From a phage: DNA of 47,731 nucleotides. The notes beneath the pieces were generated by a model. It saw only the letters and a list, made by a program, of their open reading frames with translations, ran no database searches and had not been told where the DNA came from. Below, one piece after another: positions 11,770 through 44,718 of this stretch. The DNA lies in sequence record PZ445407.1. The stretch is one strand, 5' to 3'. A program made the translations under genes and the position numbers. The stretch's first letter is position 1, and each line of letters opens with the position of its first letter.

Positions 11770-12120
11770 ATGGCAATTGATACATTTACCTGGTGTACTC
11801 AGATTCAAGGTGGCTCAGCCTCCTTTAGTAACACGAATAACGTTCGCATAGTTAGCTTTGGCAATGGTTATGAACAGCGTGGGACTGGCGGCTACCGAAG
11901 CAACAAGCGAAGTTACCAGATGACCTACACTAACAAGGACTGGCGTAATGTGATGGATTTCTGTTTCAACCACATCATCACTCCATTCTTCTGGACTACG
12001 CCGCAAGGTGATACGTCAATGTTTGTGATCCAGCAGGATAGCATTAGCGTTACACCACTCAGTAATGAAGTTCAGACTGTAAGCATGCAATTCGTGGAAG
12101 TCTTTAGCTCAATGCGTTAA
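11770..12120 (+). CDS. minor tail protein (lambda M-like, putative)
   Basis: ATG 11770; ~116 aa immediately after tape measure. Confidence 0.5.
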   Translation: MAIDTFTWCTQIQGGSASFSNTNNVRIVSFGNGYEQRGTGGYRSNKRSYQMTYTNKDWRNVMDFCFNHIITPFFWTTPQGDTSMFVIQQDSISVTPLSNEVQTVSMQFVEVFSSMR

Positions 12121-20101: not shown

Positions 20102-20144
20102 ATAGTATCGCATCCTTGCGAGCAGTGTTTAGCAATTCGTGCTA
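20102..20144 (-). promoter_or_regulatory. palindrome-type promoter on minus strand for small peptide and Cor-like operon
   Basis: Reverse complement reads TAGCA cgaat TGCTA + 22 bp + TACTAT + leader TACTCCATCGAAACGAAAC. Confidence 0.5.
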
Positions 20145-20200
20145 TTGCATACACGTAACCGTTGTAACTCGATGTATACAATCTCATCCGCGAAAAATGA

Positions 20201-20300
20201 TATACGCCCTGTTACGCCAATTTACGCATTAGTTACATTAAAATATCTATATATATCAACCTTTTACTCTTATTATTATTATTATATATATTACTGTGTA
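20201..20300. repeat. iteron/AT-rich repeat element copy A (TTACGC-like repeats, ATATCTATATATATCAACCTTTTA core, (TTA)5 microsatellite)
   Basis: ~80-85% identical by eye to copy B; in divergent intergenic region. Confidence 0.6.
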
Positions 20301-20526
20301 TATCATGTAACTACTTCTATAGAGCGTTCCGGTTATAATTTTAATATCATGTGGATTTATACAGTATTGCGCGGTAGCTATAACAATGCACCATCAGCGA
20401 TAAACGGTATACACGATATACACACTAGTTACATTGAGCTATAGCTGGGCTGAGGTGCTAAAAGCCGTAACCAATGGCAATGCCTACACGCAATTACAAA
20501 GATTCACGCGTAAGTTTGAATCAACG

Positions 20527-20570
20527 ATTGGCAAAACCAATTGGACTGGCTACGGTGCCGAATATATAGT
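20527..20570 (+). promoter_or_regulatory. promoter with variant palindrome ATTGG-N5-CCAAT, 23 bp, -10 TATAGT
   Basis: Same geometry and leader as family but different half-site. Confidence 0.4.
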
Positions 20571-20607: not shown

Positions 20608-20802
20608 ATGACCTACTACATTATCAAAGAGAAAAACAACGCACTTTTCGGCGATTGCTATTTTGGTGGCCCTGCTGGATACACCACAAATAAGAGCGAA
20701 GCTGACCGATTCGAGACCAAAGAAGAAGCCCGAGATGTGCTGACCGGGTACTTCACTGAAGAAGATTTGAAGTCTGTTAAAGTGGTTAAGATCAAGGGGT
20801 GA
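20608..20802 (+). CDS. hypothetical protein (64 aa; track ORF 20434..20802 probably over-extended)
   Basis: ATG 20608 sits behind a promoter/leader of the conserved type located inside the track ORF. Confidence 0.35.
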   Translation: MTYYIIKEKNNALFGDCYFGGPAGYTTNKSEADRFETKEEARDVLTGYFTEEDLKSVKVVKIKG

Positions 20803-25162: not shown

Positions 25163-25185
25163 AAAAAAACCTCCCGTGGGAGGTT
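25163..25185 (-). terminator. minus-strand terminator between primase and tail fiber
   Basis: hairpin cctccc-gtg-ggagg with A-run on plus strand. Confidence 0.5.
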
Positions 25186-26107
25186 AGTCTAATAACTCGC
25201 TTGCTTTGTATATTCGCTTTCTTATGCCTGACTTGAAAAAATTATCATCATTTGGTAATACCACATCAAGATTGCGATCGTCAGCAACAGCAAGTAATTC
25301 AAAATTATGGCGAGTACAAGCGATGCGTAACTTGTGGTTTCTAAGCGCGTAAGCAACCATTTCCATATTATAACTGGAGTGACAAACAAGTACGCAGCGG
25401 TTGCCAGTACCAAGATGAACGTGAACACCATCAATCCAATTGTCGACAAGATAAGCGTACTCATCATCTTTAAGAGAGCCAATAACAGCAACTGACTGGC
25501 GAGTGTAATCTTTTGCAGCATAACTAACATCTCCCTCTTCATTGATAAACATTACATTGCACATTTCCTCTGATATACCGTCACTATAAGCCATAAAGCA
25601 CGGTATTGCGTGTATTAGTTCGCCTGATTTTGCTCTACCAACATCAAATCCAAACTCGCTATAGATTCCCTCGTATGTACTGAGTGGGGTTGATTCTACT
25701 CTTTTGGTCCTTCCCATTATCTCCAGGCATCTTTCGTGGTCAATCTGAGCGCCCATCTTGTATGGTGATGTTCTTGATGCTTGCTTGTTTGCTTTGTTAA
25801 CCACCTCGACGGGGATTAGGTTTAACCACTCACCTAGAGCATCGATACATTCGCTGAACGACTCCCCTCGCAGTTTCTGGACCCAAAGAATTCCATCACC
25901 TGAGCCGCATTGGTTGCAAATAATACCACCATCACCAGGCTCGCTAACTTTGTCGGTCCATCTTGCGCGATCGTTTCCGCCGCAATAAATGCATGGTTGA
26001 TGCTTCTTGGTCTGGAAGAACTTTGGGTCAGCGCCGCAGATATTAATAAGTGCCTTATCCCACAGGCCGCGCATTCTTGGTAGAACCTCTTTCTTATCGT
26101 AGTGCAT
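25184..26107 (-). CDS. DNA primase (zinc-binding, putative)
   Basis: N-terminal Cys4 cluster (CIYCGG...CNQCG); replication region. Confidence 0.55.
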   Translation of the reverse strand: MHYDKKEVLPRMRGLWDKALINICGADPKFFQTKKHQPCIYCGGNDRARWTDKVSEPGDGGIICNQCGSGDGILWVQKLRGESFSECIDALGEWLNLIPVEVVNKANKQASRTSPYKMGAQIDHERCLEIMGRTKRVESTPLSTYEGIYSEFGFDVGRAKSGELIHAIPCFMAYSDGISEEMCNVMFINEEGDVSYAAKDYTRQSVAVIGSLKDDEYAYLVDNWIDGVHVHLGTGNRCVLVCHSSYNMEMVAYALRNHKLRIACTRHNFELLAVADDRNLDVVLPNDDNFFKSGIRKRIYKASELLD

Positions 26108-26428: not shown

Positions 26429-26914
26429 TCATCCATGAGATATGTCTTTAGCTTTTCGTGCTGCTTCGTTAGCAGCCTTAATTTTACGCCATGATCGACA
26501 TTCTGGTTTGGTTGCTAACTCGGATTCAGTAACCACACGCAGCATGTGACGCTTTTTGCAACGCAGCGTAAGAGGCTTTCCATTGCCGTCGAATTGCAGA
26601 TCTGGTCGGCAGAATGTAGCGCGAAAACCTTCTCCGGTTCGTTTGTAGTAGTTGTGAGATAGCTGAGCGCCACGTGCAGAGATCATGCCACGCTTAAACC
26701 ACTCTTCTACAGCCTGCGGCGTCACCTTTAACTGCTTTGCGATATTCGCCTTTGTGCCGAAGAAATCAAGGAGCATCTCAAGCCGCGCGCGTAGCCCAGC
26801 CCTTACCTCATCTTTCAAAACGTAGTAACCTGAAGGTCGTTTCCGCTGCTTTTTATCTTCAGTGCGGATGGTTCCGTTATTGCCGTTAGTGGTTCGCTTA
26901 TCAACTGCATTCAT
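26429..26914 (-). CDS. putative HTH DNA-binding regulator
   Basis: Segment IAKQLKVTPQAVEEWFKRGMIS resembles a helix-turn-helix; highly basic protein; divergent from helicase promoter. Confidence 0.45.
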   Translation of the reverse strand: MNAVDKRTTNGNNGTIRTEDKKQRKRPSGYYVLKDEVRAGLRARLEMLLDFFGTKANIAKQLKVTPQAVEEWFKRGMISARGAQLSHNYYKRTGEGFRATFCRPDLQFDGNGKPLTLRCKKRHMLRVVTESELATKPECRSWRKIKAANEAARKAKDISHG

Positions 26915-26926
26915 TTTATTACCTCA

Positions 26927-26968
26927 ATAGCATTTTTTGTTAAAAGTCATTCTGATTTGATGGTAGTA
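26927..26968 (+). promoter_or_regulatory. palindrome-type promoter for helicase (TAGCA-N5-TGTTA, ~21 bp, TAGTAT)
   Basis: Direct read; palindrome lies 13 bp from start codon of divergent HTH gene. Confidence 0.45.
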
Positions 26969-26971
26969 TTG

Positions 26972-27001
26972 TACTCAATTAAACGCTACAAGACAATTTT
27001 T
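26972..27001 (-). promoter_or_regulatory. sigma70-like promoter on minus strand (-35 TTGTCT, 17 bp, -10 TACAAT) for HTH/primase/tail fiber operon
   Basis: Read from reverse complement of divergent intergenic region; coordinates approximate. Confidence 0.35.
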
Positions 27002-27015
27002 ATAGGAATTTAGAT

Positions 27016-29011: not shown

Positions 29012-29431
29012 ATGAATATTACAGACAAAGTTGATTACATTGAGTTTTACCCGGGCCCGGTTAAGTCATGCCCCAAAGAGGACGACGAACAGATCTTTTG
29101 CTCTGATTGGGTTAAGTACCATTATCCTCAGATTATCTATTGGCATACCGTTAATGAGGGGAAGAAATCAATGTGCGCAGCCAGAAAGGATGCAGCAAAA
29201 GGCCTCCTTAAAGGCGTATCAGACTGCCTATTTCTAATACCTGAACCATTGCGAGGAAGGTATCCATTTGGCGCAATAGAGCTAAAGAGGGCAGGGAAAA
29301 CGCAGGCTAGTCCAGTCAGCGAAGATCAGAAGGCATTCCTGAAGAGCGTAAGAGAATCAGGCGGCTTCTCGGCTGTGGCCTACGGTCGTGAAGGTTTTCT
29401 TGCGGCGTTCAGAGAAATGATTTCAAAATAG
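29012..29431 (+). CDS. VRR-NUC-like nuclease (putative)
   Basis: D/E/K residues in DCLFLIPEP...GAIELK arrangement; start choice 29003 or 29012. Confidence 0.45.
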   Translation: MNITDKVDYIEFYPGPVKSCPKEDDEQIFCSDWVKYHYPQIIYWHTVNEGKKSMCAARKDAAKGLLKGVSDCLFLIPEPLRGRYPFGAIELKRAGKTQASPVSEDQKAFLKSVRESGGFSAVAYGREGFLAAFREMISK

Positions 29432-34082: not shown

Positions 34083-35666
34083 TCACCCCAGCAATCGTGG
34101 ATTAATGTAAACTTTATCACCAATCAGGCACGTGTAGTTTTTCTCATCAAGCATTGGCAGCAGGTGATCTTTAATCTTAGTCATCACTCCAGCCTGAGCT
34201 TCGAATGGTTTGACCTTACGAGCAGCTTCATATAGAGAACGAACGCCTACTACGCCTTTCCCGTTCCTGCCTTGTTTAATCAGAATATCAATCAGCTTAT
34301 TCATCTCGGCATTGTCTCCAGCGTGACCAGCGGCGTTGGCAGATGACAGATAAGTCTTGCTAAGTTCCTGGAACATAATTACAGCCTCCTGCATTGTGTC
34401 CAACTCAATCTCCCTGGACTTCTGTGGACTCCCGCCGTTAGGGTTGAACCAGTTGCGAATAGTGTGAAGAACCGCAGCGATTCTGATAGCCTGCTTATCG
34501 AACTTGCCTAACGCACCGCGCAACATTGTGTGTGAATACTTCCCGCCGTCCGCGAGGTGAGGCTCCATTTCCTGACGCGCTCGGTTGAGATATTTCATTG
34601 CTGAGTTGCTCACTGTCAACTTAACATCTTGCTCATTCATGATTTCGTGAACCAGTCGGAAGTAATCAGCCTTTAGTCCACCATCAATTGGCTCGTATGT
34701 TGATTCACCATTTTCATCAACGAATACACGCTCGCCCAGGAATGACTTTTCACGTACAAGCAGGAAACGTTCCGACACACCAATACCACGCGCACCAGCA
34801 TTCATGATCGCGTTTATTGTTTCATCCTGCGCAATTACTGAGATGCAACCCATAGCAAAGAAACTCATGTTGTTCTCTGCATTCGCGCGAGCGATAGATA
34901 CGTGCCCACCATCCCATGCTTTAAGAACAAGTTCGCTGTTCGTTTTCTTAGAGCCATCACCATAGGTCATGCCAAGCAGTGAGTTAACACTCGTTGCCTC
35001 ATCCGAGATAACCGCGAAGTTACCCTGGCGGTTGTTTATTCGTGCCAGGCCTTCAGGTGTGGTGTCTGATACCGGGAATACGATATCGCACAACTTCTCC
35101 AGTTTTTCCTCTAGCTCCTCCTTTTCCTCAAATAGGGAGGCCATCTCTGAAGGAGATTTTTCCTGCTTCATCTCTTTGGATAATGCGGATAGTTTTGCCA
35201 TAATCTTTTTGCGCTCACGCTTGCGAACTTCATTCAGTCGCTCGGTCTCAGCAATCATTGGAGCAATCGAAAGTGAGTTGATGGCTGATTTACCAGTTGA
35301 TGGCGGCTGACTGGTCACGACGTAAAGCGAAGTCGGTTGCTGAGTTCCATGATACTCGACAGTAAAGCGGCCCAGCATCGCAGCAGAAATACACCCCAGG
35401 AAGTGCATATAGGCTGAAGACTCTGGGAACTGAACGGAGCGGGCAATGTTGGCAGAAAGTTTACCAACAACATCAATATCATTACCGAGTGAGATTACGG
35501 GGTACTTGTCATTAGCGGAATCAATCTCTACGGGCGCCTTCCAGAACGATTGAGACTGTCGATAGCCATTGGCATTAATAGCGACTCGCAGGGGTGGGAG
35601 GTTGTCTGCGGCAGCAATTGCCATAACCTGTTCAACAGATAGCTTATCTTCGTTGAAATCAAACAT
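34083..35666 (-). CDS. P-loop NTPase (putative replication-associated ATPase)
   Basis: Walker A-like QPPSTGKS and Walker B-like AVISDEAT; N- and C-terminal regions shared with 38508..39047. Confidence 0.55.
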   Translation of the reverse strand: MFDFNEDKLSVEQVMAIAAADNLPPLRVAINANGYRQSQSFWKAPVEIDSANDKYPVISLGNDIDVVGKLSANIARSVQFPESSAYMHFLGCISAAMLGRFTVEYHGTQQPTSLYVVTSQPPSTGKSAINSLSIAPMIAETERLNEVRKRERKKIMAKLSALSKEMKQEKSPSEMASLFEEKEELEEKLEKLCDIVFPVSDTTPEGLARINNRQGNFAVISDEATSVNSLLGMTYGDGSKKTNSELVLKAWDGGHVSIARANAENNMSFFAMGCISVIAQDETINAIMNAGARGIGVSERFLLVREKSFLGERVFVDENGESTYEPIDGGLKADYFRLVHEIMNEQDVKLTVSNSAMKYLNRARQEMEPHLADGGKYSHTMLRGALGKFDKQAIRIAAVLHTIRNWFNPNGGSPQKSREIELDTMQEAVIMFQELSKTYLSSANAAGHAGDNAEMNKLIDILIKQGRNGKGVVGVRSLYEAARKVKPFEAQAGVMTKIKDHLLPMLDEKNYTCLIGDKVYINPRLLG

Positions 35667-36476: not shown

Positions 36477-36519
36477 AATATACATGAAAAGCCCCGAAGG
36501 GATTTAGCGATTCGTGCTA
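36477..36519 (-). promoter_or_regulatory. palindrome-type promoter on minus strand with terminator-like hairpin in spacer
   Basis: Reverse complement: TAGCA cgaat CGCTA + 22 bp (contains cccttcgggg hairpin) + TATATT. Confidence 0.45.
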
Positions 36520-36665
36520 TTGCGTGCTTTTTCTATCGCCCTTAGCATAATCTCATGACTATCAAGCAAGTCTTCTCGGAACCAATCCCCGCATGGCCAG
36601 CCCTTTCCGCTGTAGGCGCTGATGACCTCCAGATCGAAATAATTTATCTCAGATGGTAATAGCAT
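36504..36665 (-). CDS. hypothetical small protein (~53 aa)
   Basis: Hand-translated; stop embedded in promoter palindrome. Confidence 0.25.
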   Translation of the reverse strand: MLLPSEINYFDLEVISAYSGKGWPCGDWFREDLLDSHEIMLRAIEKARNSTNR

Positions 36666-36860: not shown

Positions 36861-37096
36861 TTCACCTCATTAAAGGTTGCAATACCAGGGATAAACATTC
36901 CAACCTTCCAGCCCGCAATGGCAATCCATCCAGAGTCGTGCTTGTGCGGTCGCTCAGCGCCATTAATCACCCACTCGTTCGGGATTGTCTTGCCGTTAAT
37001 GATTAGCGGCTCAGCGTCGTATGCAGAGCCTTTGACGAATGGTGTTAATACCTTCTTGTCTGTACTTGTAATAACGTTAGTGCAGCGAATTTTCAT
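36857..37096 (-). CDS. hypothetical protein (start MKIRCTNV)
   Basis: RBS gagga before ATG 37096. Confidence 0.35.
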   Translation of the reverse strand: MKIRCTNVITSTDKKVLTPFVKGSAYDAEPLIINGKTIPNEWVINGAERPHKHDSGWIAIAGWKVGMFIPGIATFNEVK

Positions 37097-37313: not shown

Positions 37314-37357
37314 ACTATACCCTCGCCAGACCATAACGTCATTAACAAAAAGTGCTA
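37314..37357 (-). promoter_or_regulatory. palindrome-type promoter on minus strand for the 33655..37286 accessory operon
   Basis: Reverse complement: TAGCA ctttt TGTTA + ~22 bp + TATAGT + leader ...CATCAACAACGAGGGGG. Confidence 0.5.
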
Positions 37358-37373
37358 TTCGTCAGATTTATGG

Positions 37374-37458
37374 ATTGTTGCAGATATTGCAATGATTCAC
37401 ATGATTATTGCACATATAGCAATATTGCTTCAGATGCAATGATGTTTTTGATTGTTGC
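37374..37458. promoter_or_regulatory. cluster of ATTGCA/TGCAAT repeats flanked by direct repeat GATTGTTGC (operator-like)
   Basis: At least six TTGC(A) units within 85 bp of a non-coding region. Confidence 0.3.
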
Positions 37459-37602
37459 GAAAAGTGAAATGAAGGGGTGAGTGAGCGAATGATAGATGGA
37501 TGGACTACCATACAAGTTGATTTTGATTCTTCTTGAGCAACTTTGCGCATACGCGTTATAAAGGTTATGCCATGTAGATGAAATCTCACTCCGCAGGAAT
37601 CG

Positions 37603-37700
37603 TGTACGCCTATCACGCAGGATTACGCAATGGTTACGTAATAATATCTATATATATCAACCTTTTAGTGTTATTATTATTATTATTATTATATACGTGT
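37603..37700. repeat. iteron/AT-rich repeat element copy B (same core, (TTA)7)
   Basis: Direct repeat of copy A; second short conserved block TTACATTGAGCTATA at 37848..37869 vs 20429..20449. Confidence 0.6.
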
Positions 37701-37753
37701 ATATAGTGTAGATAGTGGATATTGGATATTGCGATAGTTTTCTATGATTTTTT

Positions 37754-37786
37754 CCTACACTTGTAGGAATGTGACTACACTGTAGG
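37754..37786. promoter_or_regulatory. two tandem palindromic sites CCTACA-(N1-2)-TGTAGG-AAT (operator-like)
   Basis: cctacacttgtaggaat and ctacactgtaggaat read directly. Confidence 0.35.
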
Positions 37787-37917
37787 AATAAATAGGCATA
37801 TATGGGCCACCCCTCCATAAAAACTTATCTACAATCTGTACACGGCTTTACATTGAGCTATATCTGGGGTTGGTAGCTGAAAAGCGTAAATAAATTGAAT
37901 TCAACCACAAATAACGC

Positions 37918-37946
37918 TTGATAACATGTAACCTCGATGATATTAT
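37918..37946 (+). promoter_or_regulatory. sigma70-like promoter (-35 TTGATA, 17 bp, -10 TATTAT) for 37987..38508
   Basis: Hexamers read directly. Confidence 0.45.
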
Positions 37947-37986: not shown

Positions 37987-38508
37987 ATGTCGAATCGAAT
38001 TCAGCCAGTAAGCCTTGGTGATGTTATCCGCTACATGGCCAAGCAGGCACTTAAGACTGACAACCGAACTTTTCATGTCCCAATCCATCTTATAGCTCGC
38101 CAGGTGTACGGACTAACGTCTGATGATATGGGCCGAATCAGCACTGAAGATCTCGAGACTGGTGGCAAATACAGCTTGGCAAAGTTGAAAGCGTCATATG
38201 TCTCTAACACAGTTGCAAGGATGCCGGAGATTCAGGAGGCGAACGTTCGGGCCAAGCTATCAATCAAGGACGGAGACTTCGGGGATGATGTTGATGTTCG
38301 ATGCGCATACATCACCTTGGTAGATGGGGCAATTCAGAAAGGAAAGAGAGTGAAGGCCAACAACCAGGTTGCAGAGAAGGCGGTGAACGACTTTAAGGAT
38401 AGAATCCTCAAGCTAATGCCATCCGTGACTGAGTTTGAAGGAGGCGAGATCACTGGAGCCATTAAGGCAATTAAGATGTACCAGGAAATGATTAAGGAGA
38501 CAAAATAA
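37987..38508 (+). CDS. hypothetical protein
   Basis: Behind canonical sigma70-like promoter. Confidence 0.45.
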   Translation: MSNRIQPVSLGDVIRYMAKQALKTDNRTFHVPIHLIARQVYGLTSDDMGRISTEDLETGGKYSLAKLKASYVSNTVARMPEIQEANVRAKLSIKDGDFGDDVDVRCAYITLVDGAIQKGKRVKANNQVAEKAVNDFKDRILKLMPSVTEFEGGEITGAIKAIKMYQEMIKETK

Positions 38509-39047
38509 TGGGGATGTTTGATTTTACCGAAGAGAAGCTGACAGATGAGCAGATTATGCAGATTGCTGCGCGGGATGGACTTCCTCCGCTACGAGTTGCA
38601 ATCAATGCCAATGGATATCGCCAGTCTCAATCATTCTGGTGTAGTGTTGAGGAGTTGCTCTGCGCAAAGCTCGACAGCAAGTCGGGCGTAGTTGTGCTAA
38701 AAATTCACGACCAGAGCAGGAACGGTAAAGGGGTTGTAGGAATTAGATCAACATATGAAGCGCTGAGAAAGGTCAAGCCATTTGCCGGACTCAACGGAGT
38801 CATGCATGACCTGAAAAATAACATCCTGCCATCGCTACAGGACGTAGGAATCATCTGCCTCATTGGAGATAAAATTTACGTGCATCCATACATCATTGGC
38901 ATGCATGCGATAGAAGTTGAAGAGTGGTGCGACCCATGTCCTGCTGTTGAGCAAGATACTAGACTACCATACCACTTGCGTTATAGTGAGGAAGAGGTGG
39001 AGATGGCGATGGACTTGTATCGTAGATGGAATGCTGTTGGGAAATGA
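38508..39047 (+). CDS. internally deleted paralog of the 34083..35666 ATPase (N- and C-terminal modules only)
   Basis: Shares LPPLRVAINANGYRQSQSFW and C-terminal RNGKGVVG.R..YEA.RKVKPF...CLIGDK.Y with the 527-aa protein; lacks the P-loop core. Confidence 0.5.
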   Translation: MGMFDFTEEKLTDEQIMQIAARDGLPPLRVAINANGYRQSQSFWCSVEELLCAKLDSKSGVVVLKIHDQSRNGKGVVGIRSTYEALRKVKPFAGLNGVMHDLKNNILPSLQDVGIICLIGDKIYVHPYIIGMHAIEVEEWCDPCPAVEQDTRLPYHLRYSEEEVEMAMDLYRRWNAVGK

Positions 39048-41643: not shown

Positions 41644-41835
41644 ATGATTACAATTAACCTGTCAGAAGAAATGGCTGCTGACCTTATTGATTCACTAAGC
41701 CTGGTTAAAATTCGATACGGGACTTACAACAGAAGCGAATCAATAAAGGAAGTGGTAAAGCAAGTTAAACAGCAGGTCGAAGCGGCCAAAATCGAATTGC
41801 AGAACACCCCATACGATTTTAATAAAGGTGAGTAA
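41644..41835 (+). CDS. hypothetical protein (MITINLS paralog 1)
   Basis: N-terminus MITINLSEE. Confidence 0.4.
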   Translation: MITINLSEEMAADLIDSLSLVKIRYGTYNRSESIKEVVKQVKQQVEAAKIELQNTPYDFNKGE

Positions 41836-41836
41836 G

Positions 41837-42055
41837 ATGATTACAATTAACCTGTCAGACAAGCAAGCAGCAGAACTTAAATCCATGTTATCAATCTTTG
41901 AGAAGCCAAATGACCGAGCAATTGCAAAAGAGGTTATCTCTCAGATCAACAACCAGCAATTCGACGTCAGTGACTTCGAGTCATCACGTCAATATGAAGC
42001 GATGAGTGTCAACGCTGCATACCTGGTTAACTGGGATAAGGCGACTAAGCAATGA
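41837..42055 (+). CDS. hypothetical protein (MITINLS paralog 2)
   Basis: N-terminus MITINLSDK; tandem duplicate. Confidence 0.4.
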   Translation: MITINLSDKQAAELKSMLSIFEKPNDRAIAKEVISQINNQQFDVSDFESSRQYEAMSVNAAYLVNWDKATKQ

Positions 42056-44279: not shown

Positions 44280-44640
44280 CGTAGACAAACGAGGCCACTA
44301 AGTGGCAACGGCGCACGGAGCGCACTACGCGGTAAGTCCGCTGCTCATTAAGTAGCGTATGCGGCGCATCTGGTCCATGAGGATAAGGCGTAAACCTCAA
44401 CCAACTTCCCAGTATGGGCTTTATTCCCTTAGGGACTTGAAGACCTAGCGCAAATAGGCCGACATGGTCCAAGTCGAAAAAACTGACCAGACCTGAGCAC
44501 GTCATTAAAAGAGCTTTCTGTTAATCGGTCGTTTCAGGCGACCCCGGAGCCGTAACCGGGATTTATATGGGTGGCATTTATGTCATCTTGTAAATTGGTC
44601 GTAAAGGCGACCCCGGAATCATAACCGGGACTCATTCAAA
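44280..44640 (+). ncRNA. candidate structured non-coding RNA / tRNA precursor leader with duplicated double-hairpin unit
   Basis: No convincing ORF; GC-rich; two ~34-nt direct repeats (44527..44562 and 44596..44630) each forming two 5-bp hairpins. Confidence 0.3.
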
Positions 44641-44718
44641 GCTCTGCTAGCTCAATTGGATAGCAGCAACGACCTTCTAAGTCGTAGGTTACTGGTTCGA
44701 ATCCAGTGCGGAGCGCCA
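44641..44718 (+). tRNA. tRNA-Arg (anticodon UCU), CCA encoded
   Basis: Acceptor stem GCTCTGC/GCGGAGC, anticodon stem ACGAC/GTCGT with loop CTTCTAA, canonical T-arm GGTTCGAATCC, 3' GCCA. Confidence 0.8.

Follow-up and report, generated by a model that had tools for sequence, protein, structure and literature searches.

Paired hexamer-repeat and AT-rich elements as candidate replication origin modules of Escherichia phage JulesPiccard and related Drexlerviridae

Two replication origins have been described in phage SPP1: oriL and oriR lie ~13 kb apart, each consists of direct repeats together with an AT-rich unwinding element, and both are bound by gp38 (PMC6316719). Theta initiation takes place at oriL, and the initiator at oriR has been proposed to stall the fork and so to switch replication to recombination-dependent concatemer synthesis (PMC6316719). 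In the papers on T1-like phages no origin or iterons were found (PMC11447400, PMC7718038), so this role is unfilled in the group. Here we describe two similar intergenic elements, copy A and copy B, in a stretch of phage DNA of 47,731 nucleotides (record PZ445407.1; its full length is referred to as the window), and consider them as candidate origin modules. The iteron origins of lambda, P4, pSC101 and R6K offer a further comparison: they contain helical-phase direct repeats, with units of 18-22 bp, next to an AT-rich region. A bend induced by integration host factor (IHF) is used in pSC101 and R6K, P4 needs a second, distant iteron locus (crr), and the lambda origin is activated by nearby transcription.

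The source of the window is Escherichia phage JulesPiccard (Bas03): one encoded protein is 100% identical to bas03_0065 of that phage. The DNA matches Rtp-like phages of the family Drexlerviridae, subfamily Braunvirinae. The window is the whole genome, circularly permuted; the reading frame of the large terminase apparently continues into the window end, and the first bases of the window complete a 21-nt repeat which was split by linearisation. Our literature search, which did not extend to the original T1 and Rtp genome papers, found no description of the A/B pair; nor did it find replication-intermediate data for any T1-like phage.

Anatomy and conservation of the two copies

Copies A and B form the top non-trivial self-match of the genome (E 6e-19). 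The best match pairs 20222-20303 with 37623-37704 (87% identity over 84 nt), a longer one covers 102 nt at 78%, and the equivalent pair is the top self-match in Rtp and RobRod40 too. A first-pass annotation of the window had noted hexamers, a core and a TTA tract at both places, had offered either a replication origin or shared early regulatory regions as their meaning, and had proposed self-alignment as a check. All of these motifs are present in both copies and the self-alignment agrees with the annotation; pairwise alignment extends the similarity beyond what had been marked, to the limits of the whole copies in Table 1.

Both copies follow a single plan. In the left part, a leader TCCGC(G/A)..AAAT is followed by four hexamers of the type (A/T/G)(T/C)ACGC, ending in GTTACA/G, and by the core ATATCTATATATATCAACCTTTTA. 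The middle consists of (TTA)5 in copy A or (TTA)7 in copy B, then TATATA and two to four 9-bp TGTATAT-type units. The right part comprises ~100 bp of variable sequence, a second leader (C..C.G/ATAAA), three hexamers and the tail TGAGCTATA(G/T)CTGGG; this second array lies ~180 bp beyond the (TTA)n microsatellite in each copy. The 4 + 3 units of each copy have the same sense and are spaced 9-11 bp, as phased direct repeats. The second conserved block of the first-pass annotation (TTACAT plus TGAGCTATAGCTGGG at 20429-20449, TTACAT plus TGAGCTATATCTGGG at 37848-37868) is present as described and, since the tail adjoins the last hexamer, it is the final unit of the second array plus the tail. The second array in each copy had been missed, as had the IHF consensus in the core, the position of copy B near the packaging start and the presence of the pair across the family.

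When an array is defined as at least three units within one mismatch of TTACGC, spaced 9-11 bp, the two strands of the genome hold two phased arrays only, those of copies A and B, compared with a mean of 0.08 in first-order Markov genomes; the motif was picked after inspection of the data, and the two arrays are not independent because the copies are homologous. Phased units equivalent to those right of the AT tract are found in every copy (TGTATACCG twice, TGTATATCT twice, GTGTATATA/GTGTAGATA/GTGGATATT), and (TTA)n has 5-7 units in relatives. At the position of the right array of copy A, p111 has CCCTCCGTGAAAAATGG plus TATACAC, TATACAC and TTTACAT. All six occurrences of CCGCGGA in the Rtp genome are inside the two elements; across genera, enrichment of the leader motif is clear in Braunvirinae only.

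We gathered 22 distinct copies (A and B together) from relatives and used 12 distinct copy-A orthologues for a test of variable columns. A scan of IMG/VR with an 18-nt core gave 15 useful loci and protein-anchored IMG/VR scans yielded few more; the IMG/VR matches to the 14-nt core TATATATATCAACC were nearly all due to chance, in unrelated contigs, and were discarded. The information profile of the 22 copies is highest on TACGC/ACGC/TTACGC/GTTACA and on the core, and low in the spacers of 4-5 nt. In the copy-A orthologues none of the 24 hexamer columns is variable, against 8 of the 12 spacer columns (Fisher p 1.6e-5; the orthologues are related, and the test contrasts column classes, not independent events).

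Over its left half (20147-20320), copy A shows 94-97% identity to its counterparts in RobRod40, Rtp, MSK and Nouzillyvirus p111 (OL449681), and Rogunavirus AKS96 also carries copy A. Around it, recE has ~85% nucleotide identity (the RecE of p111 has 49% in protein) and the leftward genes are replaced. For copy B the identity of the left-half orthologues is lower than for copy A (81-86%). The near-identity of copy A amid flanking genes which are unrelated or 49% identical suggests that it marks a mosaic junction, or else that it is itself horizontally exchanged. No similarity to the element is found in PLSDB plasmids or in 5,426 E. coli genomes, which argues against a borrowed origin and against a satellite carrying the element. 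A scan of the whole window with Rfam covariance models gave a tRNA at 44641-44715 as its sole match; the element is in no Rfam family.

Duplex stability was calculated as nearest-neighbour free energy and ranked genome-wide over segments of 40, 60 and 100 bp. At all three lengths the two AT cores rank 1 and 2 (z 4.4-5.3, vs 3.5-3.8 for the third). An adjacent AT-rich region with the lowest helix stability, as in iteron-type origins, is found in this genome and in its relatives. The IHF consensus has eight occurrences in the genome (both strands), of which two are in the elements; these predicted sites, TATCAACCTTTTA at 20254 and 37655, are preceded by ATATCTATATA, so that each combines the consensus with an A/T-rich 5' flank.

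Some further features of the element were recorded. The tail (20435-20449 and 37854-37868) includes, within copy A, a 10-bp palindrome AGCTATAGCT, and is kept in Rtp and p111. As a sigma-70 or sigma-54 promoter the tail was rejected by hand, the spacing being wrong (for sigma-54, GG and GC are 8 nt apart, not 10). CpxR or OmpR boxes were also dropped by hand, since the most conserved bases (ACGC) are not those required by these boxes, and a match to the second block at 29035-29076, an apparent third copy with 62% identity, is inside coding sequence and was taken as chance. A perfect palindrome TTCCTACA-CT-TGTAGGAA and a half copy (37752-37769 and 37776-37789) are found in region B only. In SU57-like phages TCTGACA-NN-TGTCAGA replaces this palindrome, i.e. 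both arms have changed together; it may be either a dimer operator or a hairpin.

Pairing across the Drexlerviridae

Eight complete Drexlerviridae genomes of six genera were compared: JulesPiccard, RobRod40, Rtp, MSK, p111 (Nouzillyvirus), T1 (Tunavirus), E6 (Hanrivervirus) and mtp13 (Webervirus). In each of the eight, the two least stable 60-mers (z 4.5-5.9; third-ranked 3.2-3.8) are found at the same two sites: one is located ~300-400 bp upstream of recE, the other in the region which separates the leftward helicase operon from the rightward early genes. The two sites of T1 share 91 nt at 76%. According to the TLS paper there are no such repeats anywhere in the TLS genome; contrary to this they do exist, but they are short and degenerate, and the two TLS regions share 136 nt at 70% (E 2.6e-12) plus a second block. 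The copies of mtp13 are almost identical and are inverted in the record, each of them keeping its orientation relative to its own downstream operon.

The repeat units differ between genera: TTACGC/GTTAC is found in Braunvirinae and T1, GTTATC/GATAACG in Hanrivervirus E6, G(T/G)GAACA in TLS and GGTAAGAT/ATCTTACC in Webervirus mtp13. In the mtp13 genome, 8 of the 9 copies of ATCTTACC and 13 of the 18 copies of ATCTTAC are within 220 bp of the two cores. These lineage-specific repeats match between both copies of one genome, as is expected of iteron origins.

Two further observations concern mtp13 (locus L149; 16200-16580 and 950-1330). Its recE module has the opposite orientation to the helicase/terminase backbone, and the AT-core elements are inverted along with it. 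Each of these elements is surrounded by GGTAAGAT/ATCTTACC repeats in either orientation, with 10 of them close to recE and 3 around the other element.

Genes, promoters and packaging start around the copies

The coordinates of the features are given in Table 1. Based on annotated relatives, the left part of the genome contains structural genes (+) to ~19.7 kb, two Cor-type genes (-), region A and recE-erf-ssb (+). The middle contains tail fibre, primase and helix-turn-helix (HTH) regulator (-), a short divergent region C, and the genes from a 664-aa helicase to lysis (+). The right part contains a 527-aa helicase with small genes (-), region B, and small early genes to terminase (+). The context which the first-pass annotation had given for copy A, with Cor-like genes on the left and a RecE/Erf/SSB module on the right, agrees with these relatives. 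Elsewhere in the genome, a tandem pair of small paralogous early genes has identical 23-nt starts (41644-41686 and 41837-41879), and a 31-nt direct repeat (44536-44566 and 44605-44635) is directly upstream of the sole tRNA gene.

Table 1. Features of the two element copies and of their surroundings (positions in the window)
Feature	Position	Strand	Remarks
Element copy A, whole	20147..20470	+	Divergent intergenic region between Cor-like leftward genes and the RecE/Erf/SSB operon; aligned with copy B
Leader TCATCCGCGAAAAATG, copy A	20184..20199	+	Ahead of the left array; TCCGC(G/A)(G/A)(G/A)AA kept in Braunvirinae A and B copies
Left array, copy A	20202..20238	+	ATACGC 20202, TTACGC 20212 and 20222, (G)TTACAT 20232/20233; start-to-start distances 10, 10 and 11 bp
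Least stable 60-bp duplex of the genome, copy A	20233..20292		Candidate unwinding element; includes (TTA)5; z = +5.3
Core ATATCTATATATATCAACCTTTTA (24 nt), copy A	20243-20266	+	Same in copy B and nearly all relatives
IHF consensus match, copy A	20254-20266	+	TATCAACCTTTTA fits the consensus WATCAANNNNTTR
(TTA)5, copy A	20270-20284		Length-variable microsatellite
TGTGTATATCATGTAACTAC, copy A	20295..20314	+	Two 9-bp TGTATAT/TGTAAC-type units right of the AT tract
Right array, copy A	20392..20449	+	Leader CATCAGCGATAAACGG, ATACAC 20409, ATACAC 20418, TTACAT 20429, tail TGAGCTATAGCTGGG
Sigma-70-like promoter TGGACT-N17-TATAGT	20542..20570	+	Precedes the 64-codon gene starting at 20608, and recE; outside the repeat
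Pac-proximal repeats	37360..37525	+	Beside copy B only; include the inferred packaging-series terminus (about 37508-37525)
GATTGTTGC; TGCAATGAT; 12-bp palindrome AGCAATATTGCT	37373, 37450; 37388, 37435; 37418-37429		Left of the mapped termini
Element copy B, whole	37546..37890	+	Divergent intergenic region between the leftward helicase/methylase operon and rightward early genes
Leader CTCCGCAGGAAT and left array, copy B	37589..37639	+	GTACGC 37604, TCACGC 37613, TTACGC 37623, TTACGT 37634; start-to-start distances 9, 10 and 11 bp
Second least stable 60-bp duplex, copy B	37635..37694		Core, IHF consensus and (TTA)7; z = +5.1; third-ranked stretch 3.6
Core ATATCTATATATATCAACCTTTTA, copy B	37644-37667	+	IHF consensus TATCAACCTTTTA at 37655-37667
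(TTA)7, copy B	37671-37691		Length-variable microsatellite
Four 9-bp units GTGTATATA, GTGTAGATA, GTGGATATT, GGATATTG, copy B	37697..37731	+	Right of the AT tract
Right array, copy B	37810..37868	+	Leader CCCCTCCATAAAAACT, CTACAA 37829, GTACAC 37838, TTACAT 37848, tail TGAGCTATATCTGGG
Sigma-70-like promoter TTGATA-N17-TATTAT with TG extension	37918..37946	+	Precedes the first early gene at 37987; outside the repeat

Concerning promoters, rightward sigma-70-like sequences are located ~250-280 bp right of each AT core. Three sigma-70 promoters have been predicted in TLS: P01 and P51 (upstream of recE) are at equivalent places, and the third is in region C before the regulator gene. Inside the shared element the best promoter match has 9 of 12 positions, derives from the TAA repeat and shows no excess over shuffles. 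Software-predicted promoters which are annotated in the element of two relatives have no experimental basis and were set aside.

A 21-nt direct repeat (DR), aaATAGCACnnnTTGnTAAAA, is conserved and intergenic in T1-like phages including TLS, T1 and Rtp (PMC11447400). Like the element it is a conserved intergenic repeat of these phages, and it precedes leftward genes beside both copies: 20128-20146 (-) abuts copy A and 37342-37359 (-) is left of copy B. The DR family is characterised by ATAGCACnnnTTGnTAAAA about 80 bp upstream of a start codon; its copies here are outside the element, which differs from it and is not a member. In the window the DR, AATAGCACnnnTTGCTAAA (palindrome TAGCA-N5-TGCTA), is found on the + strand at 12120, 21771, 25119, 29427, 39066, 40197, 41567, 42185 and 43333, and on the - strand at 20128-20146, 36503-36523 and 37342-37359. 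When placed by hand, its centre is ~22 nt upstream of a TATAGT-like -10, roughly at -41.5, with no -35 hexamer; this is the geometry of a class II activator site. A 161-aa Cro/C2-like HTH protein (26429-26914, -) is a candidate DR activator. In region C, the third promoter region (26915-27015), the DR is present and there is no hexamer array or TA tract.

The packaging termini were mapped in the relatives MSK and SU57 and transferred to the window by alignment. The MSK paper gives a single significant PhageTerm terminus, at position 36,862, forward, which corresponds to 37508 in the window; for the SU57 record, the end at which it opens was picked with the help of PhageTerm and a coverage step, and this end corresponds to about 37524. 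The first hexamer of copy B is located 80-95 bp to the right of both positions, and packaging, being directed rightwards, would pass through this copy; the Rtp and T1 records were opened in the same region as copy B. Repeats of the GATTGTTGC/TGCAATGAT type, which lie beside copy B, are also found in region B of T1, whose record starts inside one unit. The surroundings of copy A have no GATTGTTGC/TGCAATGAT repeats, and no terminus has been reported near it. Most likely, pac recognition resides in these B-only repeats, and the shared element would be a neighbour of pac and not pac itself.

Among the proteins which could bind the arrays, the 527-aa protein (34083-35666, -) is a DUF3987 protein (E 3.7e-42). 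The DUF3987 family has been described as replicative helicases related to MCM (SF6), which carry a winged helix at the C-terminus and frequently occur together with primases (PMC4889955); 5'-3' helicase activity has been demonstrated for one member (PMC11724360). The phage also encodes a zinc-ribbon DnaG-type primase (25184-26107), the SF2-type 664-aa helicase, the Cro/C2-like HTH protein and a P22 gp3-type small terminase; none of its encoded proteins is recognisable as a separate initiator. Next to copy B, at the start of the rightward early operon, a 179-aa protein (38508-39047, +) is a DUF3987 paralogue without the ATPase core: from the DUF3987 helicase it retains 51 N-terminal residues (71% identity) and 63 C-terminal residues (57%), the latter with the winged-helix part, and the two genes share a DNA repeat (35541-35666 and 38514-38639). 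In its AlphaFold model (pLDDT 82.7) a helix-strand-helix-helix-strand-strand unit typical of winged helices is predicted; a fold search gave weak matches only (E above 0.08), mostly to winged-helix proteins. Our leading guess is that the winged helix of the DUF3987 helicase may bind the arrays, because the repeat spacing of one helical turn suits such domains.

Candidate roles and comparison with known systems

We tentatively favour, at a little short of an even chance, the reading of the two copies as paired cis-acting origin modules, each with iterons and an unwinding element. The origin suggested by the first-pass annotation gains from the conserved hexamers with drifting spacers, the least stable AT tracts and the family-wide pair; initiator binding and initiation are what we infer from these. 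A sequence-specific phage protein would occupy two same-sense arrays of 3-4 iterons, one helical turn apart, flanking the TA-rich stretch, where the genome should melt most readily. An IHF-type bend at the invariant core could help to wrap the complex in this phage and its lineage, and negative supercoiling would be contributed by the divergent transcription to either side; the melted region would then be entered by the phage helicase and primase. The two copies may be alternative start sites or may divide the work as in SPP1, which is conceivable since copy A heads the exonuclease/annealase/SSB operon and copy B is beside pac. Recombination-gene mutants of T1 arrest DNA synthesis. An extension which we regard as unlikely is that all Drexlerviridae have such a two-site system with genus-specific iterons, where one site would fire theta replication and the other (at the recombination-operon promoter or beside pac) would arrest forks or recruit the DUF3987 helicase, and so switch replication to recombination-dependent concatemer synthesis and couple this to the packaging start; in some lineages the paralogue at 38508-39047 would compete or regulate at these sites.

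Several observations weigh against an origin. In its strict form the IHF consensus is not kept by copy B of Rtp, RobRod40 and p111 (AACAA/AATAA for ATCAA), and it is absent from the T1 elements. Candidate DnaA boxes, TGTGGATTT at 20350 and AGTGGATAT at 37714, match at 7 of 9 positions at best, their sites are not conserved, and they were rejected. GC/AT skew tracks gene orientation and transcription only and gives no replication signal. Across the few genera available no protein covaries with the repeat type (helicase winged-helix domain, 179-aa paralogue, small terminase, HTH regulator and primase were considered), and the identity of the helicase C-terminus (T1 50%, E6 57%, mtp13 40%) does not follow it. 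RobRod40, MSK and p111 have the 179-aa paralogue, Rtp keeps a remnant of it, and T1, E6 and mtp13 lack it; the element therefore cannot depend on this protein. Promoter predictions are also drawn to intergenic DNA that is rich in AT. Finally, both copies are in promoter-bearing regions and keep their orientation to the downstream operon even when mutually inverted, as in mtp13; a regulatory element would show the same behaviour.

The latter observation belongs to the main rival, which is doubtful but deserves attention, namely that the two early divergent promoter regions have a regulatory module in common. A winged-helix or HTH regulator of the phage (or of the host) would use the hexamer arrays as operator or activator sites, and the two arrays could loop the DNA via the IHF bend, controlling the rightward sigma-70 or the leftward DR-type promoters. 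The copies are indeed between divergent units with sigma-70-like promoters, two of the three promoters predicted in TLS are in equivalent regions, and the phage encodes a Cro/C2-like HTH protein. Response-regulator-type winged-helix proteins bind repeats one helical turn apart, so the spacing of the units suits them as well. The distances from the AT core, 250-280 bp to the rightward -35 and ~100 bp to the leftward DR promoter, are however too large for a role in the core promoter or as an UP element. Further, the third promoter region (26915-27015) has no such element, the promoter-like matches inside the element are not above those in shuffles, an operator needs no extreme instability (top two in 8/8 genomes), and there is no obvious reason for common control of the rightward operons of A and B.

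A packaging role, with the shared element as part of a terminase recognition site with an IHF bend and copy A secondary or vestigial, we consider quite unlikely. The P1 pac site has hexamer repeats and IHF, and lambda cosB has R sites and I1, which offers a parallel. The termini of the relatives close to the hexamers of copy B and the opening of the Rtp and T1 records there also point to packaging, as may the ATATA repeats of T1 to which Wietzorrek et al. (2006), as cited in the MSK paper, pointed in their search for the pac site, provided that these are the AT core of T1 region B, as we read them. A pac recognition sequence should occur wherever the element does; the GATTGTTGC/TGCAATGAT repeats flank copy B only and, being conserved with T1, are better candidates for terminase recognition. 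As MSK has one significant terminus, cutting is not directed by the shared element on its own; if another pac were active 17 kb off, it would yield a second packaging series, and none has been reported. Copy A is also the better conserved of the two, which is hard to square with a vestige. It is very unlikely that the copies are structural or recombinational DNA without a dedicated initiator (module boundaries, RecE/Erf hot spots, or sinks for IHF/H-NS/Fis): the near-identity of copy A amid divergent genes, the varying length of (TTA)n and the IHF consensus would suit this, but it leaves unexplained the invariant hexamers with drifting spacers, the genus-specific repeats which match between copies and the constant two-array architecture. 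Scarcely credible is a copy A which is part of a protein-coding gene (open reading frame 20139-20444, 101 codons). A stop-free + frame of ~100 codons spans copy A in most orthologues, and RobRod40 annotates a coding sequence for a hypothetical protein there, but the Rtp annotators called no gene, copy B has the same nucleotides without the frame, and the frame is shortened to 53 codons in one relative (locus L147). The product would be a poly-Tyr low-complexity sequence, and the orthologue differences are non-synonymous, confined to the spacers and without 3-nt periodicity. With the frame missing from copy B, broken in one relative and its substitutions non-synonymous, the element is taken as not coding.

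T1 belongs to the seven classical T phages; its relatives often contaminate laboratories and fermentations and are also candidates for phage therapy. The pair is the best candidate so far for the unmapped replication origin(s) of the family, precise enough to name the bases for mutation. As an origin, the pair would reveal the way in which an MCM-related phage helicase is directed to its DNA target, would be a second example of the two-origin design of SPP1, and would yield components for T1-based vectors and for the engineering or blocking of these phages. As an operator array instead, it would establish what the family uses as its early regulatory switch.

Compared with P1 pac and lambda cosB, copy B has clusters of short repeats with a candidate IHF site between them, near the inferred position of terminase cutting; copy A differs in being near no terminus and without pac-proximal repeats, and the hexamers have no GATC (Dam) sites, which those of P1 have. 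The likeness to the origins of lambda, P4, pSC101 and R6K consists of phased short direct repeats by an AT-rich region, a candidate IHF site, a second locus and nearby transcription; here, in contrast, the units are 6 bp long, two arrays flank the AT tract, and there is no adjacent rep gene and no convincing DnaA box. With SPP1 there is no sequence similarity. The SPP1 oriL is inside the initiator gene, whereas both copies here are intergenic; SPP1 uses a dedicated origin-binding protein, a loader and a DnaB-type helicase, whereas here there are a DUF3987 helicase, an SF2-type helicase and a primase; and binding and initiation have been shown for SPP1, whereas the present pair is known from its sequence. 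The likeness is one of design: both are pac-type lytic siphoviruses of roughly 44-48 kb, with two copies 13-17 kb apart on the circular map, direct repeats together with an AT-rich unwinding element in each copy, and one SPP1 copy also in a long intergenic region, and both carry an exonuclease, annealase and SSB set for later, concatemer-forming replication.

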